Shown here: piece after piece, positions 1,427 to 50,102 of the stretch | Position numbering within the stretch: the stretch's first letter is position 1 | Layout of the letters: each line of letters starts with the position of its first letter | Assembly: GCA_963677595.1 (NCBI GenBank) | Contig: OY782041.1 | Location: forward strand, 2,368,001 to 2,432,000 | Reading direction: 5' to 3' | DNA: 64,000 nt | From: Spirochaetia bacterium | Lineage (GTDB): Bacteria > Spirochaetota > Spirochaetia > CAKZLE01 | The notes under the pieces: model-generated | Database searches by the model: none | What the model saw: only the letters and a program-made list of their open reading frames with translations | What the model was told of the DNA's origin: nothing | Made by a program: the position numbers and the translations under genes

Positions 1427-4216
1427 ATGAACCTTTCTGATTATCCAGGGACTCGATGGTATAAATGCGATTTACATCTTCATACACTTGCAAGCAAATG
1501 TTTCGAAGATGATGATTACTCTCCAGAGGCATTTATTGATGCTGTAAGTGCTAAGGGATTAGATTGTATCGCGATTACAGATCATAACACAGGGAAGAGC
1601 ATTGATGCTATAAAAGACGCTGCAAGAGATAAAAATATTACTGTCTTTCCTGGGGTTGAAATCACATGTACTGATGCAAAGGTCCATATTCTAGTACTGT
1701 TTAATCCTGAAAAGACAACACAGGATGTAGAGGATTTTCTTATAAGTCTAGGATTGGATAGGCAAAAATTTGGAGCACAGAATGCTCATATTGATAAGAC
1801 AATTACTAAGATAATGGAAATCATTGAGAGGAATGAGGCAATTGCTATACCCGCTCATATCGATGAATATAATGGATTGTCTTCTATAGCGGATGCCGTA
1901 AAGCAAGAATTATTTGGGAATGGGTTAATATCATCTGTACAGATAGTTCATTCAAGATTGATGAAAGAGAGCCTTTCAGGTGAAGAAGAAACCGAACTAA
2001 TAGATTATCTGAATGAATATTACGGAAAGACTGAGATAGGATTTCGTGATTTGAATACATGGCGTAGTTGTTCAAAATATATTAAATCAATAGCACAGCT
2101 AACTTTTTCAGATAATCCGAAAGAAACAAAATCATCAAAACACGGGCTCTGGGGGGTAGGTAATAAATATACGTGGATTAAAATGGGGAAATCCCCAGAT
2201 CTTGACAGCTTGAAGCAGGCATTCTTGGTTCCTGATCTTCGAGTACGAAATATGTTTTCTTGTCAATATAAGCCATATCAAGAACCAAAAACATGGATCG
2301 AAAGCATCTCAATAAACGATACATATATAACAGAATGTGGAAAGGGTTTTTCGCTATCCTTTAGCCCACAAATGAATACAATTATTGGGGGAAGAGGAAG
2401 CGGGAAATCGAGTATTTTGAGATTTATTCGTGGAATATTAAAAAAAACAAACGATCTTAGCTCTCTAACTGAAGTTGGTGAAGAGTTTCAGAATTTCTAT
2501 CAAAAGCAAGATTCACATCAGCATGGAGTATTTAATGGAAAATCCCAAATAACTCTAAATTTATTCAAGAACGGTATTTCTTATCAAATAGTAGCCGAAA
2601 ACATCACCGATGTTCATAATCAGAAAATCTCGATTTCGAAATTTGATTTTGAAACTAGAGAATATATTGAGATTGTGCAAGAAGAATTTTTATCTTTATT
2701 TGAAGTAAATATTTTTTCTCAGAAGCAAATCTACGAGATAGCAAACAATCCTAATGCCTTGTTAACCATTATAGATGAATCAATAGATGGTTTAGAAAGT
2801 AAAAAAGCCGAGATATCTCAACTCAAATCAGATTATTATGTTATTTCATCTGAAATAAGAAGTTATAAAGAAAAAATTAAAAATATAAAATTAATAGAGA
2901 GTGAAATTGATGAGATTGATTCAAGAATAAAATTGCTACAGAAAAGTGGCATTACTGATTTACTAGAACTAAGCCAACAGTATTCGAAAGAGAGCACTTA
3001 CCTGAGTAGATTTTTAACCAAAATTGATGAAGAAGTTAAGTCTTTTAATCATTTATTGGAAAAGTTGAAACTTGTTGTAGAGTTTGATGAGACTGTTTTA
3101 AAAACATCAAATAAAGATTCCATAATTGCTATAAAAGACAATCTTAATAACAGCACCTTTAAAATAATTGAAAGAATAACTTCGCTGAAGGATGAATATG
3201 TTGGAAATGTTGAAAAAGCAAAAGAAGCAATAAAAACATCTGGGTGGAGTACATTCAGACAATTGAATTTGGACCAAATTGAAATTAAGAAACGGGATTT
3301 GGGTGATCAAGCGATTAAAAATATTGAAGAGATTGGGGCCTTGGTTGAAGAAAAGCATAGTAAAGAGAAAGAGCGAGATGTTATAAGGAAATATGAGGCT
3401 GATATAAAACTTAAAGAAAAAGATCTAGAGATGAACTATTTAGAATATCTGAAAGCAATTAACGAGGTTTCTGAATGTCGTAAAGATTTTTTACGTGAAT
3501 CTGTTAGCGGTGATAATGTAAGAATTTCGGTTGCGCCTTTTCGAGATAAAAAAATGTTTGAAAAAGAGTTTAGGTCAATAATCAATAATGAGACTGCTTT
3601 TCACGATTCAATTGAAACTTTAATGCAAAAGTGTTTCGATGGTAGACTGCCCGATACTCTCAAAATCATCCATGAAGATTTACACCAACTTAGAGTAGGG
3701 GAAATTCCAGAAAATTACGATGGACGTTTTAAGAATTGTATTCAACGTCTTTCTCCTGATCAATTTGATAGTCTGATACTTCTTGTCCCAGATGACGAAA
3801 TAAAAGCCGAATATAAGCCCCCTAGGTCTAAAACATTTAAAAAGATTTCCTCAGCTTCCGCTGGCCAGAAAACTGCCACAATTCTGACTTTTTTGCTTTC
3901 CTTTGGTAATGAGCCTCTAATTTTAGATCAACCTGAGGATGATTTAGATAATCATCTAGTCTATGGGTTAATTGTTGACCGGCTTAAAGAATCAAAAGAA
4001 TCAAGACAAGTGATAGTAGTGACACACAATGCAAATATCCCGGTTAATGGTGATTCTGAATATATCATAGCAATGGATTCAGAATCGCTAAATCTTAATG
4101 TCTTACATGAGGGATCCATTGACGAGGATAATATAAAAAAGGAGATATGTGATGTCATGGAAGGTGGAGAGGATGCTTTCCGACTACGGTCAAAACGTTA
4201 TGAAATAAATAAATAA
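1427..4216 (+). CDS. PHP phosphoesterase + SMC/ABC-type ATPase fusion (Ppl/TrlF-like anti-phage protein)
   Basis: PHP motifs DLHLHT, AITDHN, GVEIT, AHID; Walker A GGRGSGKS; coiled coil; signature SAGQ; Walker B LILDQPEDDLD; H-loop VVTHN. Confidence 0.88.
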   Translation: MNLSDYPGTRWYKCDLHLHTLASKCFEDDDYSPEAFIDAVSAKGLDCIAITDHNTGKSIDAIKDAARDKNITVFPGVEITCTDAKVHILVLFNPEKTTQDVEDFLISLGLDRQKFGAQNAHIDKTITKIMEIIERNEAIAIPAHIDEYNGLSSIADAVKQELFGNGLISSVQIVHSRLMKESLSGEEETELIDYLNEYYGKTEIGFRDLNTWRSCSKYIKSIAQLTFSDNPKETKSSKHGLWGVGNKYTWIKMGKSPDLDSLKQAFLVPDLRVRNMFSCQYKPYQEPKTWIESISINDTYITECGKGFSLSFSPQMNTIIGGRGSGKSSILRFIRGILKKTNDLSSLTEVGEEFQNFYQKQDSHQHGVFNGKSQITLNLFKNGISYQIVAENITDVHNQKISISKFDFETREYIEIVQEEFLSLFEVNIFSQKQIYEIANNPNALLTIIDESIDGLESKKAEISQLKSDYYVISSEIRSYKEKIKNIKLIESEIDEIDSRIKLLQKSGITDLLELSQQYSKESTYLSRFLTKIDEEVKSFNHLLEKLKLVVEFDETVLKTSNKDSIIAIKDNLNNSTFKIIERITSLKDEYVGNVEKAKEAIKTSGWSTFRQLNLDQIEIKKRDLGDQAIKNIEEIGALVEEKHSKEKERDVIRKYEADIKLKEKDLEMNYLEYLKAINEVSECRKDFLRESVSGDNVRISVAPFRDKKMFEKEFRSIINNETAFHDSIETLMQKCFDGRLPDTLKIIHEDLHQLRVGEIPENYDGRFKNCIQRLSPDQFDSLILLVPDDEIKAEYKPPRSKTFKKISSASAGQKTATILTFLLSFGNEPLILDQPEDDLDNHLVYGLIVDRLKESKESRQVIVVTHNANIPVNGDSEYIIAMDSESLNLNVLHEGSIDEDNIKKEICDVMEGGEDAFRLRSKRYEINK

Positions 4217-4233
4217 TTTTTAAATACATAAGA

Positions 4234-5211
4234 TTACTGCTTTGATTTATTGAAAATTTGAACAACGATTTGGTGTGATATATGCCACATCATTACTGGA
4301 GGTATGGCATTCCCAAGAGCCCTGTATTGTGAGAACTCTGATCCCACAAGTTTGAAGTTTTCTGGAAAAGATTGAATTCTGGAAACTTCTCGAGGCGTGA
4401 ATCTTCTGAATCTTCCTGATATTTTTAAAACGGGATCTGTGCTATTTAAAGAGACCTTTGCAAGGTGAGCACCTACAGTGTTGCAGGGCTGGGAAATGTC
4501 TTGGGCTCGACCTTTGTTCATCATTTTATTCGATTTCTGAAGCCCTAGAACAGCCCTCTCACTAAAATAATATTTTTCAGGAACTTCATTTTCATTAATA
4601 ATTACTTCATTTAATGGGATGGGTGAAATACTATTAGATAATGGCTTGAAATTAAAGTTTAAGTTTAAATCATCCCTTATTCCTATTATGAATACTCTCT
4701 CCCTTTTTTGAGGCACACCGAAATCTACAGAATTTAAAAGTTTCCAAGTAACATTATACCCGGCTTCTTCAAAATTTTTTATAATGAGTGGGAATGCTTT
4801 CTTTTTATTAGCTGACAATATACCTTTCACATTTTCAGCAATAAAGACTTTGGGGCGCTTCTCTTTGAGTATTCTCACCATCTCGAAAAATAATTTGCCC
4901 TTATCATCCTTATACCCTAGTCGGGGAGGGTTCTGGGCTACAATTGAAAAGGATTGGCAGGGGAATCCTCCCGTTAAAATGTCATGATCAGGGATTTCGG
5001 ATGCTTCGACATCTCTAATATCTTTTTGCTGACACTTTATTTGAAAGTTCTCATTAAAAATCTGACAGGCCGATTCTTCTATGTCATTCGCATACACGAT
5101 TTCAGTATTTAGCCGTGGGTATTTTGTATTAAGAAAAGTGAAACCACCTTCGATGCCTATGTCTGTTCCACCGCATCCGCTAAACAATGAGGCTACACGT
5201 ATTAGTTCCAT
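4234..5211 (-). CDS. DNA (cytosine-5)-methyltransferase (M2 of an RM operon)
   Basis: FSGCGG, GFPCQ, ENVKG, QKRERV, motif IX RRFTPREVSRIQSFP, motif X LGNAIPP. Confidence 0.95.
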   Translation of the reverse strand: MELIRVASLFSGCGGTDIGIEGGFTFLNTKYPRLNTEIVYANDIEESACQIFNENFQIKCQQKDIRDVEASEIPDHDILTGGFPCQSFSIVAQNPPRLGYKDDKGKLFFEMVRILKEKRPKVFIAENVKGILSANKKKAFPLIIKNFEEAGYNVTWKLLNSVDFGVPQKRERVFIIGIRDDLNLNFNFKPLSNSISPIPLNEVIINENEVPEKYYFSERAVLGLQKSNKMMNKGRAQDISQPCNTVGAHLAKVSLNSTDPVLKISGRFRRFTPREVSRIQSFPENFKLVGSEFSQYRALGNAIPPVMMWHISHQIVVQIFNKSKQ

Positions 5212-6614
5212 GGTAGTAATTCCTGATATTCTCCGCTTGTTTCCGGATTAAAAGTGATTTCCATTCCCATTTGAGTGTTGAGTAACATATCAATTTTATC
5301 TTCTTTGTATAACCTGTCAGGATCCTGTAGAACATATAATTTTTTTGATTCTTTACTGATATATAGTCGATAGATAAAATATCTATCTGACAAAGTTTTT
5401 GCTGTATTCCACTCATTTGGTGTTAAATGGAATCTGTGAAAAGAAATGTTTTTACTGCTTATTGTAGTTTTTACTTCGATATACCTTTTTCGTGCATCAA
5501 GTTCAACCGATTGCAAATCATAACCAACTGCATATGAAGTGGGAATTAATTTAATAAGGTGTAGAAGGTCTTCTCTACCACCAATAGTAATTCTCTTACA
5601 TTCATGTCCGTATGCTAAGTTTTCACCTAAGTCTCCAATCTCCTTAGTGCGAACTTCTTGTGACTCGACTCTACTAAGAAGATCTTCATAGCTCTTCATC
5701 ATATTTTCATACTGTTCTTCACTGTCAGATATCAGGGCAAGAATATCTGTCATAAAGAAATCTTGGGATACCTTCTTATTAACAAATTCAAACCATGGAA
5801 CTTTTAATGATTTTATTTCTTCGAGATCTCCTGCATTATTTTCTATCTGGGTGTCATATCCTGAGAACCATGAAGGATTTGAAAGAAAGAAATCAATAGT
5901 TTTGCTCTCTAGAGAGTTGATGTAAAAATTACCATTATAAGTATTTAAAAGATTTGCGATTGACATATAGTCTAATATATCACCTGCATACCTGATGATA
6001 TCTCCAGTCCAATCCCATGAATAATTATGTTCCTTTGCATCTAATATTCTATCCACTGTTTCCGCATTAGACTCAAGGCCGGCAGTTACTCTTAAATCAT
6101 TGAAAATCAAATGTGTAGCTTCAGCCTTTGATAATCCAATATTTTTCCCCGTTGAAGCTTTAAGATCTGTTAAGATTTTTAATATGGTGTATGCAGGATG
6201 GAACTTGACACCTTTTTCCACAAACTTTTCAATTTCATGAGATTTTATATGTGCTCCCGGATATTGGAAGAAATATAGAAAAATTTTGAAGAACTGAACA
6301 AGATCCTGATTAGTTGCAAGATCTTGCGATCGTTGTGATGATCTGGTCAGATTATTGGGCTTATCCTCAATGTAAAAACCGAAAAGTGAAGATATTTCAG
6401 TTCTCCAGTTATTTATTGTTTTTTCGGATAAACCAATATTTCCCGGAAACCGTCTGATAGCCTCGTTTAGTTTTAATTTGAAATCGTCGCAAGATGCGGT
6501 GTCAATCCGTTTTATTTCCTCCGCGACAAAGATAAGGACGTTTTCAATATTATTTTTAAATCTGGGACGAACATGGTGGATACGGAAATAGTATTCAGCA
6601 GGAACATTATACAT
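5202..6614 (-). CDS. Putative restriction endonuclease with C-terminal DUF3883-like PD-(D/E)XK domain
   Basis: GDLGE...GYDLQS...RYIEVKTT...LTPNEW motifs; overlaps a C5 methylase gene on each side. Confidence 0.8.
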   Translation of the reverse strand: MYNVPAEYYFRIHHVRPRFKNNIENVLIFVAEEIKRIDTASCDDFKLKLNEAIRRFPGNIGLSEKTINNWRTEISSLFGFYIEDKPNNLTRSSQRSQDLATNQDLVQFFKIFLYFFQYPGAHIKSHEIEKFVEKGVKFHPAYTILKILTDLKASTGKNIGLSKAEATHLIFNDLRVTAGLESNAETVDRILDAKEHNYSWDWTGDIIRYAGDILDYMSIANLLNTYNGNFYINSLESKTIDFFLSNPSWFSGYDTQIENNAGDLEEIKSLKVPWFEFVNKKVSQDFFMTDILALISDSEEQYENMMKSYEDLLSRVESQEVRTKEIGDLGENLAYGHECKRITIGGREDLLHLIKLIPTSYAVGYDLQSVELDARKRYIEVKTTISSKNISFHRFHLTPNEWNTAKTLSDRYFIYRLYISKESKKLYVLQDPDRLYKEDKIDMLLNTQMGMEITFNPETSGEYQELLPWN

Positions 6615-7653
6615 TTAGCTCTCCCAATATACTCATTAATTCTTTTGCTATTACCCCAGCAAGGATCGGAGGAACAGCATTCCCTACTTGTGTTTCTTGC
6701 TCGGATTTGTTTCCAAGGAAGACAAACGAATCTGGAAAAGACTGAATCCGTGCTGCTTCCCTTACTGTAGGTACTCTGTTGAAAGCGTAATGAAAATGGT
6801 GCCTATGTCCAGTATCAATTGTGAAGCTTGGGAATTTGCTATTCAGCCTTGTCCATGCAATATTAACTTTCCTCGAATTTTTAAACTCCTCTGGAAGGTT
6901 TTTATAATTGCCACCATCAGGTACCAAATTTATTATCATTTTTGTTTTGTCTGTATGTTTGGTTGTTATATGATTATATATCCCATTTGACCCCTGTCTC
7001 ATTTTTTCTTGGTAGTTTGATTTTGGTTTTTCAGGATATCCTTCTTCTGGTTTGATATCAAATTCAGGTAAATCTGAAATAGCTTCTTCTGCACTAATAT
7101 GGTCAGTTAAATATTTATCAAGACGGTTAAAGTCGAATTTATGTGAGGATTTGAATCCGATAAGGATAAATCTTTTCCTATGTTGGGGCACACCATAATC
7201 TGAGGCTTTAAGAATTTTCCAATTTAGATGGTAGCCAATATTCTCGAAGTCAGTGAGAATAGAATTTAAAATTATGCCTTCACCCATAGATGCTATATTG
7301 GGCACATTCTCCATCATAAATACTGCTGGTTGTAGTACTTCTACAAATTTCAAAAACTGTTTGTATAATTTATTACGATGATCATCAACAATACGTTTCC
7401 CTGCAATTGAAAAACCTTGACAAGGGGGGCCGCCGATTATGACATCTACCTCCCGTCCTTTCATAATATCCAAGGGATCTATTTGTGCTAAATCAGCATT
7501 AATAGTAGTGGTTTCCTGATGGTTAAGTCTTAATGTATCTAATGCAATTTGACAATTGTCAATCGCATAATTTATCCTAAATCCAGCATTTTGGAATCCA
7601 AGAGACAATCCTCCACAACCTGAGAATAAGTCGAGTACCCTATATTTTTTCAC
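6607..7653 (-). CDS. DNA (cytosine-5)-methyltransferase (M1 of an RM operon)
   Basis: DLFSGCGG, GGPPCQ, ENVP, QHRKR, TVREAARIQSFPD, QVGNAVPP. Confidence 0.95.
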   Translation of the reverse strand: MKKYRVLDLFSGCGGLSLGFQNAGFRINYAIDNCQIALDTLRLNHQETTTINADLAQIDPLDIMKGREVDVIIGGPPCQGFSIAGKRIVDDHRNKLYKQFLKFVEVLQPAVFMMENVPNIASMGEGIILNSILTDFENIGYHLNWKILKASDYGVPQHRKRFILIGFKSSHKFDFNRLDKYLTDHISAEEAISDLPEFDIKPEEGYPEKPKSNYQEKMRQGSNGIYNHITTKHTDKTKMIINLVPDGGNYKNLPEEFKNSRKVNIAWTRLNSKFPSFTIDTGHRHHFHYAFNRVPTVREAARIQSFPDSFVFLGNKSEQETQVGNAVPPILAGVIAKELMSILGELNV

Positions 7654-8080
7654 CCTTAATTTCCTTTATCAGTTTCTCTAGATAATGAAGATCTTTAATT
7701 TCACATTCCCAAACAACTAGAACTTTAAACCCTAGTTTTTCTAGTTCTAAGTAGTTTTCCTCATCTCTGGTAATATTCCTGTTTATTTTATCTCTCCAAT
7801 AAGTCGTATTAGTCTTAGGGAGATGATTCTTCTTGCAATACTGATGCCCATGCCAAAAACATCCATTTACAAATACAACTGTTTTATAAAGGGATAAAAC
7901 AATATCTGGTTTCCCTGGAAGTATCCCATCATTGATAATTTTTTTTGAAACGTTGCCGTGCAATCGATATCTAAACCCTCTAGCAAATAGAAATTTTCGG
8001 ACCACCAATTCTGGTTTAGTATTTTTTGATCTGATTAGACTCATGTTCCAGCTGCGTTTTTCATTTGACAAATTATCCAC
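7640..8080 (-). CDS. vsr: Very short patch repair endonuclease
   Basis: RSWNMSLIRSKNTKPE, PGKPDIV, FVNGCFWHGH, VVWECE. Confidence 0.93.
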   Translation of the reverse strand: MDNLSNEKRSWNMSLIRSKNTKPELVVRKFLFARGFRYRLHGNVSKKIINDGILPGKPDIVLSLYKTVVFVNGCFWHGHQYCKKNHLPKTNTTYWRDKINRNITRDEENYLELEKLGFKVLVVWECEIKDLHYLEKLIKEIKGEKI

Positions 8081-9148: not shown

Positions 9149-9842
9149 TCCCCTACAGACATTGTATCGTTCTCATTGATTGAAACCAACCTGGGGTACA
9201 ACCCCTGACAATACAGCTCTGCCCGGAGAGTCTTACGGGATTCCTGATTCTTATGTGGTACAAGGATCAAGGAAAATGAAGATTACCAATACTAAGGAGA
9301 AGAAGTGGCAATACGATTACAGACGACCAGAGACATTGCTGTCCAGGGAGTGAAGCTCCTGGTCTACGGTGCTGCCGGTGCCGGAAAGACCTCACTGGTG
9401 AGAACTCTGCCAAAACCGATTGTGCTATCAGCGGAAGGAGGACTGTTGTCCCTTGCAGATGAAGATATTCCGTTTATCGAGATCTCATCTGTATCTGATC
9501 TGCAGGATGCTTACAGCTGGCTGACCGGTGAAGAGGGGAGTGAATACCAGAGTATCTGTCTGGATTCCATCTCAGAGATAGCTGAGGTAGTGCTCAACTA
9601 TGAGAAGAAGCATGCCAAAGATCCCCGGCAGGCCTACGGAGCAATGCAGGAGCAGATCACCGATCTCATCCGTGCCTTCCGTGATATCCAGGGAAAGCAT
9701 GTCTATTTATTTGTCTGTAGATGTCAAGAGGTATAAACAAGAAAGTTTTGGCAATTCAAATAGACACAATTCTCCGAGACCTTAAAAATAAGGACTTGCG
9801 TGGGGAGGTGGTTAGTGATAGGCTAAAACCGTTAGATTGGCT

Positions 9843-11012
9843 TTAGCTGGTTATTGAGCTCTTATCGGAATTAATCTTGCAGGATCGGGTTCCGATGAGA
9901 GCTTCAAGTTTATAGTATTGCAGTTTCTTCAACAGATACTGTTCCCCGTCAGGCATCCGGTAGATATCACCGTTCTTCAGCAGAGCGAATCCGATAGAGA
10001 GCATCTTATTAGCAATGGCAACTGATGCTTTCTGACCAAGCTTCCGTCGGCTTTCAAGACGCTGCCAGTACCGAGTAAGAGAACAATCTCTCCTAAAGCT
10101 CTTGATCCCCCAAGCTCCCTGCATGATGTGCCTCCTGATCGGCATACACCCGTGACGAGAGACCCCAAGATGCTTATCGACCGTCCCGGATTGATCCTTC
10201 TTCGGGATGAGACCGATATAGTTCCTCAGTTGGTTAGCAGAAGAGAATCGGTCCCCATTACCGAGGAAGGCAATGAGCGTTACAGCCGTGATGTCTCCGA
10301 TACCAGGAATCGAGAGCCAGGAAAGAGCTTCTCGTGGGTGAGCGAGAATGATCTCCTTGAGCTTCTCATGAATACGTTCCATCTGCGACTCCAATGATTC
10401 AAGCTCTTCGAGCAGGAGCCCTGCACTGAATAGAGCTATCTCCTCGGTGAGCAGGGTCTCCACCCAGTCCCGTCGCTTGCGAGGATCCTTCAGATCCGAT
10501 TTCTTCAGGTCAGGGAACCCCATTCCCGTGAATACCGCATGAAGCTTGTTGATGACCTTCGTACGATACTGTGAATAGGCGATGTGAAGCTTGACTACTG
10601 AGCGCTCAGCAGATTCCTGTTCAGTCGGGATAGGAACCAGTACCCAGTTCTCCGGGTGGGCATCCCGTGCATACTTAGCCAATTTTGCAGCATCTTGCCG
10701 ATCTGACTTGCAGATCGACTCGAAGATGATATGCAGTTTCATGGGGTTGAGTACATACACGTCTGCTTCGGTGTGCTTCAGCAGATACCGTGCGAGGTTG
10801 AAGGAAGAGGTCCCTCCCTCCATGAAGATCGCATCTCCTGCTTTGAACCGTTCAGCGAGTCGCTGACGTCCTTGAGCATTCATCTTCTCGTTGAAGAAGT
10901 GATTCTTCATGAACCCTTCTTCTGCTAGTAGCATACACCCAACCAGAGTCTTCTTGGAAAGATCCAAGCCGATGATCCTGGTTGCCGTCAATCGTAAAGG
11001 TCTGTCTATCAT
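9843..11012 (-). CDS. IS110-family DEDD recombinase/transposase
   Basis: IIGLDLSK (D), FMEG (E), KSDRQDA (D,D), SIPGIG, YIGLIP..QSG (catalytic Ser), AIANK. Confidence 0.96.
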   Translation of the reverse strand: MIDRPLRLTATRIIGLDLSKKTLVGCMLLAEEGFMKNHFFNEKMNAQGRQRLAERFKAGDAIFMEGGTSSFNLARYLLKHTEADVYVLNPMKLHIIFESICKSDRQDAAKLAKYARDAHPENWVLVPIPTEQESAERSVVKLHIAYSQYRTKVINKLHAVFTGMGFPDLKKSDLKDPRKRRDWVETLLTEEIALFSAGLLLEELESLESQMERIHEKLKEIILAHPREALSWLSIPGIGDITAVTLIAFLGNGDRFSSANQLRNYIGLIPKKDQSGTVDKHLGVSRHGCMPIRRHIMQGAWGIKSFRRDCSLTRYWQRLESRRKLGQKASVAIANKMLSIGFALLKNGDIYRMPDGEQYLLKKLQYYKLEALIGTRSCKINSDKSSITS

Positions 11013-11074
11013 GGCAGCCTCCTCAAAATAAAATTAACGGATAGTTGGGAAGCTTTATGACAGGAAGTGCGTAG

Positions 11075-11235
11075 ATGCCCTTCATTTTTATTATTGAGAT
11101 CATTCCCGGGGAGAATTCCCCGGGAAGTCTCCAAGTAGTCTTCGATGACCGGTCAGTGTATCTTTCTCATTGAGGTATGTCTGAAAGTCCAGCATCCATC
11201 ACAATAGATCATTACACGATCACCGGTTCCCATTC
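11075..11235 (-). ncRNA. Predicted bridge/seek RNA in the 5' non-coding end of the IS110 (ends approximate)
   Basis: Two stem/internal-loop/hairpin units whose loop strands match the insertion target and the circle junction (see findings). Confidence 0.75.
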
Positions 11236-11556
11236 TCCGTCAAGAATAGGATAGCATCTATGACTTCTCAACTACAGTCATACTACTTTCTCAGCAAAGC
11301 TCGAGAAGACCCAGGACGAAATGGGAAGGATTCTCTATTCACCCTCGATGCCGGGGAACAAGACCGGACAGCAGCTTCCTTACTTTTTCGATGAGGTTCT
11401 CGCTTTGAGAGTAGAGAAGGATTCTGACGGAGTGACCCAGCGGGCACTCATGTGTGATGCCGATGGGATCTGGACGGCGAAGGACCGCTCCGGGAAGTTA
11501 GCACCCTGGGAGAGTCCTGACCTGGGAATGATCATCTCCAAGATCGGAGGTGCAGC

Positions 11557-11946
11557 ATGACCGATATCGAGAAAGCCTGCCAGGCCTGGGATGAGGCGAA
11601 GCTGGCAGAGAAAGCTGCAGTCGAGCAGCGGCGAGAGATTGAGGATTGGCTCAGTGGACAGATCAAAGTCCCTGAAAGCTTTGAAGGAACGAAATTAGTT
11701 CCTGCCGGTCCTTTCAAGATCAAGGTCACCGGACGGATGACTAGGAAAGTTGATGAGGTGGAGCTGCAGCGAATTGCTGCTATTCATGGAACAACCGATC
11801 AGCTGCCGAAGCTTTTCCGCTGGAAGGCCGAGGTGAGTAAGAGTGTATGGGATAAAACCGATCCCGAGGTGACAACCCCGCTGCTTGCAGCGATCACCAC
11901 GAAACCCGGGAGATTGAGTTTTACCATCGTCCGGGAAGAAGCATAA
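11557..11946 (+). CDS. Phage hypothetical protein (recombination module)
   Basis: 129 aa, ATGA overlap with the upstream gene, phage-like codon usage. Confidence 0.75.
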   Translation: MTDIEKACQAWDEAKLAEKAAVEQRREIEDWLSGQIKVPESFEGTKLVPAGPFKIKVTGRMTRKVDEVELQRIAAIHGTTDQLPKLFRWKAEVSKSVWDKTDPEVTTPLLAAITTKPGRLSFTIVREEA

Positions 11947-12527: not shown

Positions 12528-13553
12528 ATGGCTATTATACCAGAGCCTGAAATCAATACAATATCCCTCATCAACCGATATCATGAAGAATTATCGGAGA
12601 AACCCCGTTATCATCTGGGCTTCTCTCTTCTCGGGCATCCCTGTGACCGATGGCTCTGGCTGTCTTTCCGCTGGGCGGTGAGGGAACAATTTCCCGGCAG
12701 GATCAAGCGCCTGTTCAGAAGAGGGCAGGATGAAGAGCTCACTGCAGCTTCAGATCTCCGGGCGATCGGGGTGGACCTGAGAGAAACCGGACGATACCAG
12801 CGGACGATCTATGCCGGGTCCCATGTTCAGGGATCTCCTGATGGAATAATCTATCATGGACTTCCTGAAGCATCAAAGACGATGCATGTGTGGGAATGTA
12901 AAACTCACTCCAAGAAGAGCTTTGATGAACTCGAGAAAAAGGGAGTAGAAAAGGCAAAGTGGCAGCACTTTGTCCAGATGCAGTGCTCCATGACCAAGGC
13001 GAATATTACCCGAGCTCTCTATTATGCAGTCTGCAAGGATGATGATCGTCTCTATACTGATCGGGTCTATATCGACCGGGAGATCGGAGAGAAATACATC
13101 GAACGGGGTAAAAGGATCGCCTTGAGTGAACGTATCCCCGAGCCGATGTCAGCTGATCCTTCCTGGTATCAGTGTAAGCTCTGTGCTGCTCATTCCTTCT
13201 GTTTTGAAGCTCAATCAACTCAGGAAATCAACTGCAGGACCTGTGCCCATTCCACCCCGGAAGTAAACAGCACCTGGACCTGTGCCAGATGGAAGGCTGA
13301 GATTCCGAAGGAAGCCCAGACAGACGGTTGCAGAGCTCATGTGTTTCATCCTGATCTTGTTCCCTGGAAACTGCAGGAAGAGAAATGCAGCGAGAGGGAG
13401 GCTTGCTGGATTATCGGAGACCAGGAAGTTATTAACGGAGAAGCCGGGTATTCAAGCAGGGAGATATTATCTGGAAGCCCCTTCGGCGATGCAGTCATTG
13501 ATACCATACGGGAACTTTTTTCAGGTGAGTTAATTACCACCACTACAACATAG
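12528..13553 (+). CDS. Phage PD-(D/E)XK exonuclease with Fe-S-like cysteines (Cas4/RecB-like)
   Basis: GHPCDR, GSPDG...WECKT, QMQ, CKLC..C; GGAGG RBS before 12528. Confidence 0.82.
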   Translation: MAIIPEPEINTISLINRYHEELSEKPRYHLGFSLLGHPCDRWLWLSFRWAVREQFPGRIKRLFRRGQDEELTAASDLRAIGVDLRETGRYQRTIYAGSHVQGSPDGIIYHGLPEASKTMHVWECKTHSKKSFDELEKKGVEKAKWQHFVQMQCSMTKANITRALYYAVCKDDDRLYTDRVYIDREIGEKYIERGKRIALSERIPEPMSADPSWYQCKLCAAHSFCFEAQSTQEINCRTCAHSTPEVNSTWTCARWKAEIPKEAQTDGCRAHVFHPDLVPWKLQEEKCSEREACWIIGDQEVINGEAGYSSREILSGSPFGDAVIDTIRELFSGELITTTTT

Positions 13554-13562
13554 GAGAAAAAA

Positions 13563-14948
13563 TTGAATGAGTTACATTTATTTGCAGGGGCAGGGGGAGG
13601 AATCCTCGGTGGCCACTTGCTCGGTCATAGAACAGTGTGTGCAGTTGAAATTGAATCCTTCCCAAAGGAGGTGCTGTTGCAGAGGCAGCGTGATGGAGTC
13701 CTTCCTTGGTTCCCTATCTGGGATGATATCAGGACGTTTGACGGAACCCCATGGAGAGACTGCGTCGACATTGTTTGCGGAGGATTCCCCTGCCAGGATA
13801 TTAGTGCTGCAGGGAAAGGCAAAGGGATTTCAGGTGAAAGGTCGGGGCTCTGGTCGGAAATGGCGAGGGTGGTCAGCGAAGTTAGACCAAAGTATGTCTT
13901 TGTGGAAAATTCGCCCTTGCTTACCGGACGAGGACTTGACCGGGTCCTCATGGATCTGGCCGGCCTGGGGTATGATGCAAGATGGGGAGTGTTGGGTGCA
14001 GATGATGCCGGTGCTCCTCACCGAAGGAAAAGAATCTGGATCTTCGCGTATGATCCCGACCCCAACATGTTCAGATACCAGAACAGCCAACATGAAAAGC
14101 TCTCAAACTTCAGAGAACACCATGCACAGTGTAACATTAGCGAGATTGGTGGAGAAAGAGCCTTGGAAGATATGGCCTACTCCAACGAGTACCGATGCAA
14201 CTGCCGGGGCAGTATTGAATCAGAACACGAAGCTGATCAGGTTGAAATCGGGGCGATTAAGGAAGGTTTCGAACAACGGGGTTGCAGGAAGCATTGGTCT
14301 GGCGAGAACGGTTGCACTATGGCCGACTCCGGACGCAAGCATGGGGACGAGAGGATTGGAGAAGGACTGGAAGCCGGTACGTCCAAGTGGGCATCATGCT
14401 CAGTACACGATCAATCAGGCAGTGAACGATGTAGAAACCTTTTGGCCGACTCCTACCGCAAGCGAGGATGTAGCAGGAACCCCGGAGGGGAAGATGCAAT
14501 GGATGCTGACCCAAGCAGCGAAGAGTGGATGCAAGACTCGGAAGGAATATCTTGGTGGGAAATCGACCCCGCGGAATTACCCGACCCCGACAACTTCAGA
14601 TCGTTTCAATGTAGAACCTCAGCACGACAAGGGGAGAAAGCTTCTGAGGATGGAAGCTCATCCAGAGGGAACCGAAAATCTGACTGCTGCTCAAGCAAAC
14701 CAGATGAATGGCCAGTTGAACCCGGATTGGGTGGAATGGCTGATGGAATGGCCGATTGGGTGGACCTCGCTGGAACCGCTTTCGGGGGAAAAATACCAAG
14801 GGTGGGTACAGGCATCGATAAACGTGTTAAAAGGCTTAAGGCGATAGGAAACGGTCAGGTCCCTGTGGTAGCAGCAATGGCATTTATTATCCTCTCTCAA
14901 GGAATCATTCCTGATGAAGAGTCTTTATCGATGGAGAACGTATGCTGA
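13563..14948 (+). CDS. Phage C5 DNA methyltransferase, catalytic chain (motifs I-VIII and X; no motif IX)
   Basis: LFAGAGG, GGFPCQD, FVENS, HRRKRIW, then about 250 aa of unconserved-looking sequence, then RLKAIGNGQVP. Confidence 0.9.
   Translation: MNELHLFAGAGGGILGGHLLGHRTVCAVEIESFPKEVLLQRQRDGVLPWFPIWDDIRTFDGTPWRDCVDIVCGGFPCQDISAAGKGKGISGERSGLWSEMARVVSEVRPKYVFVENSPLLTGRGLDRVLMDLAGLGYDARWGVLGADDAGAPHRRKRIWIFAYDPDPNMFRYQNSQHEKLSNFREHHAQCNISEIGGERALEDMAYSNEYRCNCRGSIESEHEADQVEIGAIKEGFEQRGCRKHWSGENGCTMADSGRKHGDERIGEGLEAGTSKWASCSVHDQSGSERCRNLLADSYRKRGCSRNPGGEDAMDADPSSEEWMQDSEGISWWEIDPAELPDPDNFRSFQCRTSARQGEKASEDGSSSRGNRKSDCCSSKPDEWPVEPGLGGMADGMADWVDLAGTAFGGKIPRVGTGIDKRVKRLKAIGNGQVPVVAAMAFIILSQGIIPDEESLSMENVC
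13567..14847 (+). CDS. Overprinted +1-frame partner chain of the methylase (five PTP modules + motif-IX-like segment); start uncertain
   Basis: 426 codons with no stop; repeats MIPTPT, IWPTPT, LWPTPD, FWPTPT, NYPTPT; GQLNPDWVEWLMEWPIGWT. Confidence 0.72.
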   Translation: MSYIYLQGQGEESSVATCSVIEQCVQLKLNPSQRRCCCRGSVMESFLGSLSGMISGRLTEPHGETASTLFAEDSPARILVLQGKAKGFQVKGRGSGRKWRGWSAKLDQSMSLWKIRPCLPDEDLTGSSWIWPAWGMMQDGECWVQMMPVLLTEGKESGSSRMIPTPTCSDTRTANMKSSQTSENTMHSVTLARLVEKEPWKIWPTPTSTDATAGAVLNQNTKLIRLKSGRLRKVSNNGVAGSIGLARTVALWPTPDASMGTRGLEKDWKPVRPSGHHAQYTINQAVNDVETFWPTPTASEDVAGTPEGKMQWMLTQAAKSGCKTRKEYLGGKSTPRNYPTPTTSDRFNVEPQHDKGRKLLRMEAHPEGTENLTAAQANQMNGQLNPDWVEWLMEWPIGWTSLEPLSGEKYQGWVQASINVLKGLRR

Positions 14949-22468: not shown

Positions 22469-23572
22469 ATGAGTGCTTATCTTGAAGAGCTTCAACATGA
22501 AATCGAGCAAGAAGAGAATATTGAAGATGTATTTGAAGAGGATGTGTCGCCATCGAGATATGATATTACAAGCTATGGAATCGACTTTGATGTTGAAGGG
22601 TTGGTTAGACGAATTGCTAGGGGAGATGTTTATATCCCTGAATTTCAGAGAGAATTTGTATGGAAGATGACAGAATCATCAAGATTTGTTGAATCTTTAT
22701 TGTTAGGGTTACCAGTCCCGGGAATCTTTCTTGCGCAGGACCTCGAGACAGGGAAATTACTTGTAATTGACGGTCAGCAAAGATTATTGTCATTAAAATA
22801 CTTTTTTGATGGATACTTTAATCCAAAAATTGATGCCTCTTCAAAAAAAGTATTTAAGTTACTCAAAGTTCAAGAATCATATGAGAATAAAACTTATGAT
22901 ACATTAGAAGAGAAAGACAGGATAAATCTTGAAAATAGCGTCATTCACGCCACTGTCGTAAAACAAGAATCTCCTCCTGAGGATGATACTAGCATCTACC
23001 ATATTTTTGAGAGACTAAATAGTGGTGGAAGAAAATTAACTGCTCAAGAAATTCGTACGGCCGTTTATCATGGGACTTTCATCAATCTATTGAAGGAATT
23101 AAATGAGTATGATTCTTGGAGACGGATTTTTGGGGTAAAGAATGACCGTATGCGAGATCAGGAGTTAATATTGAGATTTTTCGCTATGTTTGAAGAAGCT
23201 GAGAACTATAAGAAACCGATGAATGAGTTCTTAAATAAATACCTACAGAAAAATCGGAATTTAAATCCTGATAGAATTGAACATTTATCAGAAATCTTTA
23301 AATCGGTTGTTGATTTATTCGCAAATGCTATTCCTTTAAAAACCTTCCGTCTTGTTAGGGCTTTAAATGTAGCTTTATTTGAATCTGCAATGGTTGGCCT
23401 TGCTTTTAGCTTGACTAGTAAAAATACTCCAGATATTGAACAAGTGCAAAAAGCGTATAATGCATTATTGGAAGATGAAAAATTTAAAGACTTAATATCT
23501 CAATCAACATCAGATGCAACAAATGTGGAAACCCGATTGAATATTGCAAAAGCTATTTTTTTAGGGGCTTAA
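22469..23572 (+). CDS. DUF262 (ParB-like/GmrSD-N) domain protein
   Basis: PEFQREFVW, SLLLGLPVP, VIDGQQRL, IFERLNSGG. Confidence 0.92.
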   Translation: MSAYLEELQHEIEQEENIEDVFEEDVSPSRYDITSYGIDFDVEGLVRRIARGDVYIPEFQREFVWKMTESSRFVESLLLGLPVPGIFLAQDLETGKLLVIDGQQRLLSLKYFFDGYFNPKIDASSKKVFKLLKVQESYENKTYDTLEEKDRINLENSVIHATVVKQESPPEDDTSIYHIFERLNSGGRKLTAQEIRTAVYHGTFINLLKELNEYDSWRRIFGVKNDRMRDQELILRFFAMFEEAENYKKPMNEFLNKYLQKNRNLNPDRIEHLSEIFKSVVDLFANAIPLKTFRLVRALNVALFESAMVGLAFSLTSKNTPDIEQVQKAYNALLEDEKFKDLISQSTSDATNVETRLNIAKAIFLGA

Positions 23573-23577
23573 TATTT

Positions 23578-24054
23578 GTGAAAAGCTTTGAACTGAACCG
23601 GCAATATTCTATTATAGAAAATCTTATAAATTCTACTTCAGCGTTTTCTGATGGTAATATTGAGTTGCAAGGCCATTGGGGGAAATACTTATGTATTCTA
23701 TCTGCTGGCTTTTTAGAAAATGCAATTAGTGAAGTTTTTAGTAATATAGTATCGGTTTCTGCAGCCCCATTCGTTTCATCGTATGCTCAAAAAAATTTAA
23801 GAAAGATTCAGAACCCTAAATCAACCAAATTCATCGAGGTGGCATATGCTTTTAAGAAGGAGTGGGGAGAAAACCTTACAATCTTTTTAGATAATGATCC
23901 AAGTATTAAGGAAGCAATTGACTCAATAATGGCGAACCGGAATTTAATTGCTCATGGGAAAACATCCTCAATTTCAGTAGCTAGAATAAAAGAATATCTA
24001 AACAAGAGTATCAAGCTGATTGAATTTGTTGAGACTCAATGGTCGAGTACCTAA
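23578..24054 (+). CDS. HEPN-domain protein (RiboL-PSP/MAE_28990-like)
   Basis: N-terminal GFLE motif and RNLIAH (R-X4-H); 5 nt downstream of the DUF262 gene. Confidence 0.85.
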   Translation: MKSFELNRQYSIIENLINSTSAFSDGNIELQGHWGKYLCILSAGFLENAISEVFSNIVSVSAAPFVSSYAQKNLRKIQNPKSTKFIEVAYAFKKEWGENLTIFLDNDPSIKEAIDSIMANRNLIAHGKTSSISVARIKEYLNKSIKLIEFVETQWSST

Positions 24055-24131
24055 GCTATCATCTTATTTATAAGATAAATAAGGTTTTCAACTTTGGGTT
24101 TTTATTTCGAAAAAAATGGAGAGTAGTTGAT

Positions 24132-25568
24132 ATGATTCCGAAAGTTTTTATTTCTTATAGTTGGACTTCCTCGGGGTATCAAGCCCAGATTCGCCAGTGG
24201 GCAGAACAGATGATGGAAGGGGAGCGTGTTGATGTTATATTAGATCAATGGGAACTTAAAGAAGGGGATGATAAATATGCTTTCATGGAGAAAATGGTAA
24301 CAGATGAATCAGTTACCCATGTACTTATATTTTCTGATTCTGAATATACAGCGAAAGCAAATAGTCGAAAGTCAGGGGTTGGTACTGAATCCCAAATTAT
24401 TTCAAATGAGATCTATTCAAAAGTAAAGCAGTCAAAATTTATTCCGATTGTTTGTGAATTTGATGATTCTAGGGAACCTTATCTTCCAGTTTTTTTAAAA
24501 TCAAGAATTTGGATAGATTTCTCAACTCCTGAAGCAGCAAATGAGAATTGGGAGCGATTGATTCGTCTCTTGTATGGGGAGCCAGCTTATGTCAAGCCAC
24601 CCCTTGGGAAGGCTCCATCTTTTCTCTCATCTAATGTTTCCGTACCAGCGAGTCCAATCACTTCAAAGTTCTTTATTTTGAAACAAGCTATTATCCAAAA
24701 GAAAAATACACTTAAATTATATCGACAAGATTTTCTTGATAGCTGTTATTCATATGCAGATGAATTGAGAATCCGTAAGAAGCCAGATGCTACAAACTGG
24801 GGTGAGAGAGTATTAGAAGACTGTGGAAAACTAAAAATTGTTCGTGATCATTTGGTCGATTGGATCATTATAGAATCTGAAGTAAATCCTTCCGAAGAGT
24901 TTGATGAGTCCGTTTTAGGAATGCTAGAGAAATTGCTTGATTTGAAATCAAGACCCTCTGAGGTGAATCAATGGAGTGATAATTGGTTTGAGGCTCAAGG
25001 AGTATTTGTATATGAGACCTTTTTATATATTGTTGCTTCCCTAATGAAAACTGAAGCATACGATACTCTTAATTTAATTCTTACGAGTCATTATTTGCTT
25101 CCTCAAACAGAGATGCGGTGGGATAATCGATTTAAAGACTTCGGCGCTTTCCTTGGGTTTTCAGGATCATTACAAATTCTAGCACCAGAAGGGAAGAAAC
25201 TTTATGCGCCTGCAGCGGAATTAATCAAACGTCAGTCTGATCGGGAAGATCTGCCTTTCTCGTTAATTATTGAAGCTGAATTGCTTGTTTTGCTAATGGC
25301 TTTTATCTCTGAAGATGTAAGTTGGTTTCCACAAACACTTCACTATGAAGGTAGAGCTTCATCCTTTCCTTTTTTTATTAAGGCCACTCAGCATAGGGGT
25401 TTTAAGAAACTAGTAAAAATAACAGGTATTGAGGATGTTAACGAGTTGCGGGAAGCCGTAAAGAAAGGTCATGAAAGAATGCAGGTTGATAAATGGACAA
25501 CATTTTTTATATATGATCGTTCATTTTGGGAGAGCATGAATTTGGATAATATGGATACTCTAAAGTAA
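24132..25568 (+). CDS. SEFIR/TIR-domain protein (putative anti-phage NADase)
   Basis: PKVFISYSW, VILDQWELKEGDD..FME, GVGTESQII, KFIPIV; GGAG RBS before 24132. Confidence 0.88.
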   Translation: MIPKVFISYSWTSSGYQAQIRQWAEQMMEGERVDVILDQWELKEGDDKYAFMEKMVTDESVTHVLIFSDSEYTAKANSRKSGVGTESQIISNEIYSKVKQSKFIPIVCEFDDSREPYLPVFLKSRIWIDFSTPEAANENWERLIRLLYGEPAYVKPPLGKAPSFLSSNVSVPASPITSKFFILKQAIIQKKNTLKLYRQDFLDSCYSYADELRIRKKPDATNWGERVLEDCGKLKIVRDHLVDWIIIESEVNPSEEFDESVLGMLEKLLDLKSRPSEVNQWSDNWFEAQGVFVYETFLYIVASLMKTEAYDTLNLILTSHYLLPQTEMRWDNRFKDFGAFLGFSGSLQILAPEGKKLYAPAAELIKRQSDREDLPFSLIIEAELLVLLMAFISEDVSWFPQTLHYEGRASSFPFFIKATQHRGFKKLVKITGIEDVNELREAVKKGHERMQVDKWTTFFIYDRSFWESMNLDNMDTLK

Positions 25569-25644
25569 TTCTTCAGCTTTGATGAAGGCCTGATCGAGTT
25601 AAGTTTATATCCATAGTTTCGGAAATGTCTGTCAGGAGGATAAG

Positions 25645-26577
25645 TTGACAAACCAAGAACTTCATGATCGAATTTCCCATAAGCCTGCAGTTCACAAATT
25701 GTTTTATGGTGCATACTTTCAAGAATCGTTGATTTTGGATGACAATGTACTTTTAGTTCCTTTAAAGGCATTCGGATTCGATTCTCAGAGTAATTATACA
25801 GCACAATATGTAATACAGATTTTAGGTGGTCATGTCGATAATGATGGTTTGAAAAATCTACAAGAGCAAGGTAAAAATGCTCTGCCGGTTTTTGCCTTAA
25901 TAGCATTTTTAGATTCTGATTCTTCACCAGAGGATCTTGAGAAGCGTGCAAATATAATTCTTGAAGCCCCTGAATTAATATTAAGCTGGTCAAGCGGTGA
26001 TGACTTTTCATTATTTGCAATTTGTACTGTCACCGAAGAAAATACATTTTTCCGTTTAACTCCACCACATTCTCGGCGAAGGAGAAGGCTCGGGTTTGGT
26101 AATACTGGGGAACAATATGCAAATCTTCTAAAAAAACTGATCGAAGCGGAAAAACAAGATGAGCATTTCTCATTTGCCCTATCTATGTTTCACGATGCTG
26201 TAAGGGAAAAGAATCCTCGGTATCAGATTGCGCGCTTCTTTTCCTGCCTTGAATGCCTTGCATACAAATTAAAAAATAAGGAACGAGAGTCAAGGAAAGC
26301 GGTAAAGTATTTGATCGGATTAGGTGATGATACCGACACAGAATATGACATCGAAGGTGTGAAATATCGATTTGATCGGATAGAGATATCGGGGAGATTA
26401 AGAGACAAACTTTATCACGGTGTTGATTTCAAAGAATCTGATCTCAATAATGAAAACAAGCATGTTTTCAAATTGTTAGAGAACTATCCTCAGATGTTAG
26501 CTGATTCATTGCATGAAGATTGCAAATTGGAAATATCTAAATGGGCAAATGGTGTCTCAAGTGGATTGGTAGAGTAG
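25645..26577 (+). CDS. Hypothetical protein with C-terminal HEPN-like motif (ApeA/MauJ-like)
   Basis: FFSCLECL followed by RDKLYH (R-X4-H); AGGAGG RBS before the TTG start. Confidence 0.6.
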   Translation: MTNQELHDRISHKPAVHKLFYGAYFQESLILDDNVLLVPLKAFGFDSQSNYTAQYVIQILGGHVDNDGLKNLQEQGKNALPVFALIAFLDSDSSPEDLEKRANIILEAPELILSWSSGDDFSLFAICTVTEENTFFRLTPPHSRRRRRLGFGNTGEQYANLLKKLIEAEKQDEHFSFALSMFHDAVREKNPRYQIARFFSCLECLAYKLKNKERESRKAVKYLIGLGDDTDTEYDIEGVKYRFDRIEISGRLRDKLYHGVDFKESDLNNENKHVFKLLENYPQMLADSLHEDCKLEISKWANGVSSGLVE

Positions 26578-48567: not shown

Positions 48568-49914
48568 TCATGCACTGATGCCTTCTGGACTCATCATCTC
48601 ATTGAATACATCGCTCACCGCCTTCGATACCTGATCCAGGTGAGAGCCCTGAGCATGATCAGCATAATGTGCTGCCATTGCCGGGGTCTTATGACCAGTA
48701 GCCAGCTGAACGGTCCTGAGTTCGATCTTATCGGCCAGGTGGGTGGCATAGAAGTGTCTCCAGGAGTGGAAGCAGATTCCGCGGTCGATCATCGCCTCTC
48801 TGATTTTCTCCTGCTCTTCGACATTACCTCGTTTATCTTCCGTCAGCTTCATGGCGACATAGACGGCGGAGAGACCTTTATTGAGGACATCTATATTCAT
48901 TGGTTTATCCTGTGCTGTTCCGTAGAATATGAACCCCTCATCCCCATAACTGCTGCTTTTGAGAAGATTCAGCAGCTCAGTCTTTATCTGGGGGAGGAGG
49001 GGAACAACACGTTCTTCCCCGTTCTTCGGTGCCTTGAGGCCGTCTGAGAAGCTCCAGCTGTGCCGAACCATGAGTTTATCACCCTGGATATCTTCCTTCC
49101 TGAGAGCGACGACTTCACCGGCTCTGAGGCCGGTGGTCATGGCAAGGAGGTTCCCGACTCTCGAGCGCTCATCATCCCAGGAAGCAGAGAATACCTGCTG
49201 GACCTCTTCTGGATTCAGGATATCACGCTTCTTTGAAGCGCCTGAGAACTTTCTTAAGCCGTTTGCCGGGTTGGTTGTGAGCTCCTCTCGATCTGTTGCC
49301 CATTTGAAGGCGACGGTTCCTGCCGTGAGAATGGAATTGATCGATTTCGGAGCGAGGTTCTTGTCTTTGAGGGTCAGCTGGAAATCCCTGAGATCATCTT
49401 TGGTGACATCGACAAGCCTAGTCTCGGGATCGAAGTAATCTCTCCAGTGGTTGAGTTTTTTCGACTGCTCATAGCAGTGACGCTTCCCGATACTCTGGCC
49501 GTAGGCATGTTTCTCTCTCACATAGGGAGAATTGTCGTAATCCCAGAATTCCTTGAGGAAGGGGAGAAGAAGAGCCTCTGATTTCTGTTCCTTCTTCAGG
49601 GCAACGTTCCCGATGACTCCTTTGTCCTGAAGGACGGAGGTAATCCGTATTGCATCCTGAGAAGATAACTCCAAAGTGTGCAGCACCTCGATAATGGTAT
49701 CTAGTGTGTAGATCTCTTTCAGGGGTTTCTTCTTTGCTTTTGATTTTTTCTGAGGAATTCCGTTCTGCAACCAATCTGAAACGATCATGTAGGCTTCAGA
49801 CTGATCTGTGGTCCCAGTGGATCTGGCTGCCAGGTATTTCCCTGTTTCGGGGTTCTTGATCTGGGCATAGTAAGTATCCTGCCCTTGGCGCTTATAAACA
49901 CAAAACCGGCGCAT
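48568..49914 (-). CDS. Tyrosine integrase
   Basis: TGLRAGE (R), APKNG (K), FHSWRH, TGH, HY; ATG at 49914 follows an AGGAG RBS. Confidence 0.95.
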   Translation of the reverse strand: MRRFCVYKRQGQDTYYAQIKNPETGKYLAARSTGTTDQSEAYMIVSDWLQNGIPQKKSKAKKKPLKEIYTLDTIIEVLHTLELSSQDAIRITSVLQDKGVIGNVALKKEQKSEALLLPFLKEFWDYDNSPYVREKHAYGQSIGKRHCYEQSKKLNHWRDYFDPETRLVDVTKDDLRDFQLTLKDKNLAPKSINSILTAGTVAFKWATDREELTTNPANGLRKFSGASKKRDILNPEEVQQVFSASWDDERSRVGNLLAMTTGLRAGEVVALRKEDIQGDKLMVRHSWSFSDGLKAPKNGEERVVPLLPQIKTELLNLLKSSSYGDEGFIFYGTAQDKPMNIDVLNKGLSAVYVAMKLTEDKRGNVEEQEKIREAMIDRGICFHSWRHFYATHLADKIELRTVQLATGHKTPAMAAHYADHAQGSHLDQVSKAVSDVFNEMMSPEGISA

Positions 49915-49936
49915 TTTCAATCTCCTGTCAGATGGG

Positions 49937-50029: not shown

Positions 50030-50102
50030 TAGCAGGGACAGGACTCGAACCTGCGACCTCCGGGTTATGAGCCCGACGAGCTGCCAACTGCTCTACCCTG
50101 CG
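50030..50102 (-). tRNA. Initiator tRNA-Met (CAT); contains att core copy 2 (50030..50071)
   Basis: CGCAGGGTAGAGCAGTTGGCAGCTCGTCGGGCTCATAACCCGGAGGTCGCAGGTTCGAGTCCTGTCCCTGCTA; C1:U72 mismatch and GGG/CCC anticodon stem; CCA not encoded. Confidence 0.96.

Follow-up and report, generated by a model that had tools for sequence, protein, structure and literature searches.

A 64,000-nucleotide stretch of a Spirochaetia bacterium genome (assembly GCA_963677595.1, contig OY782041.1, positions 2,368,001 to 2,432,000; hereafter the window, numbered from its first letter) carries, in a lambda-like prophage, a DNA methyltransferase gene with two overlapping open reading frames (ORFs). The two ORFs, alpha (13563–14948) and beta (13567–14847), lie on the same strand and share 1.28 kb. 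Alpha is by sequence a member of the DNA cytosine-C5 methyltransferases (PF00145), with motifs I–VIII and motif X present, and both frames are under selection, with a switch between the frames along the gene. The explanation favored here, with a probability of about 0.6, is a two-chain methylase in which beta supplies motif IX and a row of recognition cassettes. Its parts differ in strength. By analogy, a two-chain enzyme of the M.EcoHK31I type is very probable, and the sequences make it probable that the cassettes are recognition units. That the enzyme has several specificities at once is an analogy to which slightly better than even odds are given. The wider proposition, that in a very large phage family the recognition chain is hidden in a second frame and put together from shuffled cassettes of 35–45 residues with one methylation target each, is evenly poised.

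Organization of the Overlapping Frames

All features of the gene lie on the + strand. Alpha (461 aa, TTG start, frame 0) and beta (426 aa, ATG start, +1 frame) begin 6 and 10 nt, respectively, after a Shine-Dalgarno-like AGGAG (13552–13556) that both starts may use in common. The initial annotation, made from the letters alone, had pointed out these two long frames, and the ORFs and a chance estimate agree with it: 426 open codons would arise by chance with a probability of ~1.6e-10 at the base composition of the prophage. The third frame is closed by 34 stops. In 14 other long prophage genes used as a control, the +1 frame contains 8–85 stops and open runs of at most 138 codons. No internal promoter-like site was found in the gene.

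Alpha is the likely catalytic chain. Its residues 3–230 match Pfam DNA_methylase (E 5.5e-36), and residues 4–183 align to M.HhaI (E 5e-16). Motifs I–VIII (13563–14048; FAGAGG, GGFPCQ with the catalytic Cys77, EN and HRRKR) follow the customary numbering, and P76, C77, E115, N116, R155, and R157 are invariant in 100 sequences. Behind them comes an unconserved linker (14049–14712), a read-through of the cassette array that stops have removed where motif X has moved to beta. A pre-X segment and motif X (14811–14897; IPRV...RLKAIGNGQVPVVAAMAF) close the chain; within RLKAIGNGQVP, G429 is invariant and N430 and R424 are near-invariant. These matches and invariant columns bear out the earlier assignment of motifs I–VIII and X to frame 0. 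Motif IX is missing from alpha.

Beta, the likely recognition chain, has no Pfam match and matches PHROG 1008 (labeled DNA methyltransferase) and PHROG 26627. A segment conserved as amino acids, WKx...WPxWGMMxxG (13903–13992), overlaps alpha motifs VI–VII. It is followed by cassette 1 (14053–14172, 40 aa), cassette 2 (14173–14319, 49 aa), cassette 3 (14320–14442, 41 aa), cassette 4 (14443–14577, 45 aa) and cassette 5 (14578–14712, 45 aa), each starting with an xPTP head; cassette 5 is recognized by this head motif only. The initial annotation had described five xPTP modules of 40–49 aa; their number and lengths stand, and their starts, taken at the x of xPTP, move one codon downstream to 14053, 14173, 14320, 14443, and 14578. 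The array ends in a motif IX-like segment, QLNPDWVEWLMEWPIGWT (14713–14766), with Glu where the family has Gly, and in a tail (14767–14847) in which 22 additional codons decouple motifs IX and X. The distance between these motifs is 37 codons in the window gene versus 15 in 98 of 109 loci, and the additional codons probably arose by duplication of the 3′ end that both frames share. The beta stop codon falls inside alpha motif X.

Selection on the Two Frames

Homologous loci provide the main evidence for dual coding. The catalytic part was fetched from 160 loci and, with the window included, 152 of 161 were scored; nine were dropped as cut, short or ambiguous. Expected numbers of +1 stops were computed from synonymous codon use. 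Over motifs I–VIII, all 97 close loci are open in the +1 frame, with 0 stops versus 423 expected, and the 55 distant loci contain 42 stops versus 223 expected, 37 of them having none. After removal of near-duplicates, the +1 frame is open in 73 of 73 loci (0 stops versus 495 expected), and the +2 frame of the same 73 non-redundant loci contains 476 stops versus 445 expected. In the helicase control, the +1 frame has 289 stops versus 358 expected and is open in one of 38 cases. The beta start itself is retained: at nt 5–7 an ATG is found in 78 of 100 sequences and a GTG in 6, the latter arising via an Asn-to-Arg change in alpha. The 15 of 97 close loci that lack this start all have an in-frame ATG or GTG 2–23 codons upstream.

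The switch between frames is seen in frame-blind DNA alignments, in which mismatches were counted per alpha codon position 1/2/3 (146, 49, 118, and 146 pairs, not independent). In the catalytic part the values are 0.14/0.07/0.29 and alpha position 3 varies most (146 pairs). In the cassette region (0.34/0.18/0.16, 49 pairs) and in motif IX (0.35/0.18/0.17, 118 pairs) the most variable base is alpha position 1, which is beta position 3. At motif X the variable base is back at alpha position 3 (0.17/0.14/0.30, 146 pairs). Stop depletion and the shifting variable position together support the dual coding proposed in the initial annotation. Four-fold sites over the beta N-terminal part vary 0.57 versus 0.66 in the control; most of this part is simply kept open, but one segment, WKx...WPxWGMM, is conserved as protein. 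There the third base of alpha Gly136 is invariant (heterozygosity 0.03, median 0.63), and WKx...WPxWGMMxxG is retained in the internally starting beta gene of phage Camperdownii. The alpha linker, with a ratio of nonsynonymous to synonymous differences (pN/pS) of 1.3–2.4 over homologous cassettes, likely has reaching motif X as its sole job.

Cassette Number, Exchange and Constraint

The number of cassettes varies from 0 to 5 in 130 loci with both frames kept, as the initial annotation had anticipated, and the region grows by ~35–45 aa per cassette (22 loci are without a motif match). Among 120 protein hits, 1 to 12 heads per protein were counted; one beta-type protein (P0024, 518 aa) has ~11–12 tandem xPTP cassettes. 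The 247 units from the 130 loci fall into 36 families and 101 singletons, and the families recur at various positions with various neighbors, in agreement with the shuffling suggested earlier. Four of the five cassettes of the window gene have homologues among 311 beta-type sequences. Cassette 1 has them at 47–50% identity in two of the 311, and cassette 2 has six hits (48–89% identity, two from one contig), in which it is always the first cassette. The eight hits of cassette 3 (53–66% identity) occupy positions 1/1, 2/2, 2/3, 2/6, 3/3, and 3/4, so that it is the sole cassette of one locus (L230) yet an inner one in the window gene. Cassette 4 has one hit (47% identity), the last cassette of locus L021, and no core homologue of cassette 5 was found among the 311 sequences. 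The five cores are mutually unrelated (p >= 0.12 in 10 of 10 pairs), and local tandem duplication was rejected as their source. Judged from such comparisons, the units appear exchangeable between enzymes, as in multispecific methyltransferases with tandem target recognition domains (TRDs).

Selection on the cassettes was compared per frame, as had been suggested at the outset. Inner cassettes have a pN/pS of 0.20 in beta and 2.40 in alpha (128 pairs from 15 families), and terminal cassettes have 0.36. The sequence TGGCCKACTCC, reported earlier as microhomology at cassette borders, is indeed present at three of the five borders. Its interpretation as a conserved DNA site did not hold, since the W-P-T-P codons produce that footprint: third codon positions vary freely across 166 module heads, and a DNA-level recombination site was rejected for want of DNA conservation beyond the protein motif. 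No joint skipping a cassette was found in the contigs of four sequencing runs, a type of assembly that drops rare variants. Among five sequencing runs listed, none was an RNA holder.

An unlikely but serious alternative is that the same two-chain enzyme exists and its cassettes do not have one target each. They might act jointly, only one might be used, or they might lend general DNA affinity, the enzyme being monospecific or relaxed. The cassette cores are basic (K+R 0.17 versus D+E 0.08), which also suits general affinity. In members with a single cassette the TL-like head has little sequence upstream of it, the region with which, according to the available text of PMC2413257, conventional enzymes read the target's 5′ part. 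Relaxed prophage C5 methylases do exist (PMC3925955), though in a different family; the relaxed Paracoccus enzymes were rejected as members on size (~700 aa; PMC5537653), being set apart by description alone. Against this alternative stand the occurrence of cassette 3 both alone and in an inner position, the changing positions of the families, the unrelated cores, and the finding that constraint is as tight on inner cassettes as on terminal ones.

The Likely Motif IX and Recognition Motif

The assignment of motif IX to beta, made in the initial annotation, receives comparative support from a locus (L112) in which an LNP..EWLMGFP segment and motif X share one frame. This segment aligns without gaps to motifs IX–X of M.HhaI (conditional E 0.002); L112 may itself be a frameshifted copy. 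The cassette heads were compared with the TL motif of recognition domains, for which the available text of PMC2413257 gives a consensus that includes P-T-(ILV)-(TASV). A profile of 175 cassette heads places its best site at a TL-type site in 12 of 14 SPbeta-family single-chain methylases (p <= 0.03), which supports a TL-motif likeness of the heads of these modules, called TRD-like in the initial annotation. The motif IX and TL assignments are argued from short motifs, position and genetics rather than from fold, because searches of PDB and Pfam and against the SPbeta-family tail profile gave no significant match. Likewise, none of four beta chains bearing motifs IX and X gave a PF00145 hit. 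The predicted fold of cassette 5 with motif IX has helices only (predicted template modeling score 0.32), and a structure search with it returned nothing above Z 2.9. The fold of the L112 protein, predicted without an alignment, has a predicted local distance difference test score of 36, and neither fold is informative.

The Glu in motif IX raises the improbable case that the family works as described and the copy in the window is impaired, the Gly having been changed to Glu in a decaying prophage. Glu is found in none of the 257 other matches at this position, and an IS110 element splits the AAA_24 gene of the prophage. Both frames are nevertheless intact across 1.28 kb. A relative in sequencing runs X2 and X3 (~89% identical, one sample) has the gene without a net indel, and position 14747 is absent from its best-supported differences, which suggests indirectly that it shares the Glu.

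Rearranged Relatives and Extent of the Family

Several natural variants have redistributed the motifs between the chains. In four loci (L081, L096, L182, and L200) alpha is cut short, either behind motif VIII or within its linker, and beta has cassettes, motif IX and motif X. Phage Camperdownii, with three cassettes, has the same split, with motif X on beta and both genes annotated. The spacer between motifs IX and X in the window gene resembles that of these AquI-like loci. In a de-overlapped form (L104, 2977–4061), a separate 126-aa beta gene lies directly behind an alpha gene with a short linker and motif X. Selection moves between the frames and back over 1.28 kb and such natural intermediates uncouple the frames, which makes the origin and resolution of overprinting testable.

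A search starting from the beta motif classed 59 of 80 loci as overprinted by pattern. When 16 loci were read by eye, alpha-frame sequence was found beside the motif in 15 and one was not locatable; the exceptions were AquI-like, HNH-invaded, frameshifted or cut. Five pattern calls of motif IX in alpha were rejected as single-chain forms (by eye, three are frameshifted copies and one is not locatable; one is unread), and four of six AquI-like calls among the beta-found loci were rejected as HNH insertions. In five loci (L089, L176, L188, L244, and L245) an HNH endonuclease-like ORF in the third frame is inserted at motif IX. Near the motif IX match of L223, the beta frame is fused, probably by deletion, to an N-terminal part that presumably derives from an adenine methylase (PFPYFGGK). 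At the gene's 3′ end in L130, the overlap of motifs IX and X occurs twice in shifted frames, as a duplication or an assembly artefact.

The beta profile matches 14,949 protein clusters at E <= 1e-10; with the cutoff relaxed to E <= 0.001 the number is 35,857. The locus is not singular: it is one member of a phage family of ~15,000 protein clusters, most of them unannotated. Cultured phages are included: the E. coli P2-like phage ESSI2_ev129 (L327, three cassettes), a Paenibacillus phage (L328, three) and mycobacteriophage Che9d (L380, one) have the overprinted layout with alpha alone annotated. Standard annotation misses the second chain, as had been predicted, and target prediction from the annotated protein therefore looks at junk sequence.

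These variants bear on the two remaining alternatives. A single polypeptide could be made if ribosomes underwent programmed frameshifting from frame 0 to +1 behind motif VIII and returned to frame 0 to read motif X, which would bring motifs I–VIII, the cassettes and motif IX into canonical order. A few database proteins do join both frames, though they look like indel products. This reading is very improbable, leaving unexplained the stop-free +1 frame and retained start upstream of motif VIII, the open alpha linker, and the separate beta genes of L104 and Camperdownii. Least credible of all is an independent +1 protein without a part in methylation, a notion that fits the lack of a significant family or structure match for beta and that conflicts with the absence of motif IX from alpha, the alignment of the beta motif to motif IX of M.HhaI where it shares a frame with X, and the takeover of motif X by beta in at least five natural variants.

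Proposed Mechanism and Its Weak Points

In the two-chain explanation, a single ribosome-binding site would serve starts at both TTG 13563 and ATG 13567, and the alpha and beta chains would assemble like those of M.EcoHK31I. Each cassette could occupy the recognition position and give its own short target, in the manner of the tandem domains of Bacillus phages. Phage DNA methylated at several motifs during replication would escape several restriction enzymes. Recombination at the W-P-T-P codons that the cassettes have in common is the likely route by which they come and go. Since frame 0 must still reach motif X, only whole-codon changes without a frame-0 stop would survive.

Several points weigh against this explanation. 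All of the close loci keep the +1 frame open, but 18 of the 55 distant loci have +1 stops over the catalytic part. The cassette families used for pN/pS were clustered on the beta sequence, which favors the result, and their pairs are non-independent; the mismatch test, as noted, is frame-blind. The head profile misses the TL sites of the two conventional methylases in the window (p > 0.8) and of two of the 14 SPbeta-family proteins, and head position 4 is Pro in 157 of 175 heads, unlike the Ile, Leu or Val of the TL consensus. Searches of PDB and Pfam with the beta profile returned nothing significant, and when it was compared profile to profile with the SPbeta-family tail, significance was not reached either (E 0.12–0.14). 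At the position of the window Glu in motif IX, the locus matches have Gly in 132 of 138 cases and the protein hits in 116 of 119, and Glu is found in 0 of either. For M.EcoHK31I, the available texts of PMC2836561 and PMC3404938 place the recognition domain on alpha, not beta. Translation of beta, binding of the chains and methylation are, finally, predictions from sequence.

If the wider proposition is right, overlapping frames would be a general way of making anti-restriction methylases multispecific, with a natural cassette-to-target code. If the cassettes set specificity, they would provide many small exchangeable recognition units, with which phage anti-restriction could be decoded and C5 methylases of chosen target could be built.

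Prophage Setting

The gene is part of the prophage's replication module, where its neighbors are a 352-aa gene that Pfam does not match and a helicase gene; no restriction endonuclease gene flanks it. A 42-bp direct repeat occurs at 671–712 and 50030–50071, the right copy at a tRNA-Met beside an integrase gene (48568–49920); the repeats are likely attL and attR of a 49-kb lambda-like prophage. The nearest catalytic parts among genomes, at 81 and 79%, are from spirochaete records. Of 150 related genomes, just one had a match at E <= 1e-30, as expected of a mobile gene. Word-depletion analysis of the prophage gave no readable target.

Other defense-related and mobile genes are found nearby. A low-GC cargo at 4234–8080 (−), adjoining a CI-like repressor, encodes two conventional C5 methylases, a BpuJI-like endonuclease and Vsr, and a PHP/SMC-type 929-aa gene is located at 1427–4216. 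Between terminase and portal (22469–26577) are genes for a GmrSD N-terminal protein, a RiboL-PSP-HEPN protein, a SEFIR/TIR protein and a protein of 310 aa that Pfam does not match. The co-residence of a GmrSD-like, possibly modification-dependent gene with three C5 methylases in one phage is puzzling. An IS110-family transposase gene (9843–11012, −) interrupts the AAA_24 gene, whose two pieces lie within 9305–11560, and the prophage may be impaired.

Comparison with Known Systems

The family was not found described in the literature covered, subscription journals, REBASE notes and bioRxiv supplements lying outside that coverage. Nor were the combination of principles, the double start at the 5′ end or the size of the family found there, closed journals and some supplements again being outside it. 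A hidden alternative-frame ORF within a phage DNA methylase has been reported for ShiLan, where actinophage methylases contain an HNH insertion that is out of frame and encodes a selfish endonuclease; similar HNH insertions are found at motif IX in five loci of the window family. Unlike what is proposed for the window gene, no second-frame recognition chain is described in the available part of that report (PMC11855218).

M.EcoHK31I of E. coli (YGGCCR) is a natural alpha/beta C5 methyltransferase that needs both chains, with beta encoded in another frame of alpha. Its alpha bears motifs I–VIII plus X, its beta motif IX, and the beta N-terminal part matters for association (available text of PMC2836561 and PMC3404938). 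The window gene likewise has beta nested in alpha in another frame, under selection and with a motif IX-like segment, what would be the same split of motifs, and a conserved beta segment before the cassettes. This likeness is one of layout taken from published descriptions, not from sequence comparison. The window enzyme differs in being an orphan in a prophage replication module, in a beta whose start lies 4 nt behind that of alpha and which covers the catalytic part in full, and in the TL-type cassettes (1–12 in the family) on beta. Because alpha is unconstrained between motifs VIII and X, where M.EcoHK31I would have its recognition domain, the window gene shares the layout and is not filed under the same published enzyme type. 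The wider proposition, if true, would hint that for M.EcoHK31I the wrong chain has been credited with the recognition domain.

M.AquI (CYCGRG) is a two-subunit C5 methyltransferase (available text of PMC3404938). It is resembled by the four loci with motif X on beta and by gp76/gp75 of Camperdownii, in which motifs I–VIII are on one chain and the distal variable region and motifs IX–X are on the other. In contrast, the window gene retains motif X on alpha.

The C5 methyltransferases of Bacillus phages (SPbeta MtbP, phi3T, and SPR) are multispecific through tandem recognition domains. The window family resembles them in its tandem TL-type units of 30–50 aa between motifs VIII and IX, variable in number, with five such units before motif IX in the window gene. 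[quoted passage not shown] The heads are xPTP in the window family, and multispecificity, measured in the Bacillus enzymes, is predicted in the window family. Overall, each principle is already known from M.EcoHK31I, M.AquI and the Bacillus tandem domains, and their combination in one gene family appears, from the literature covered, to be new.

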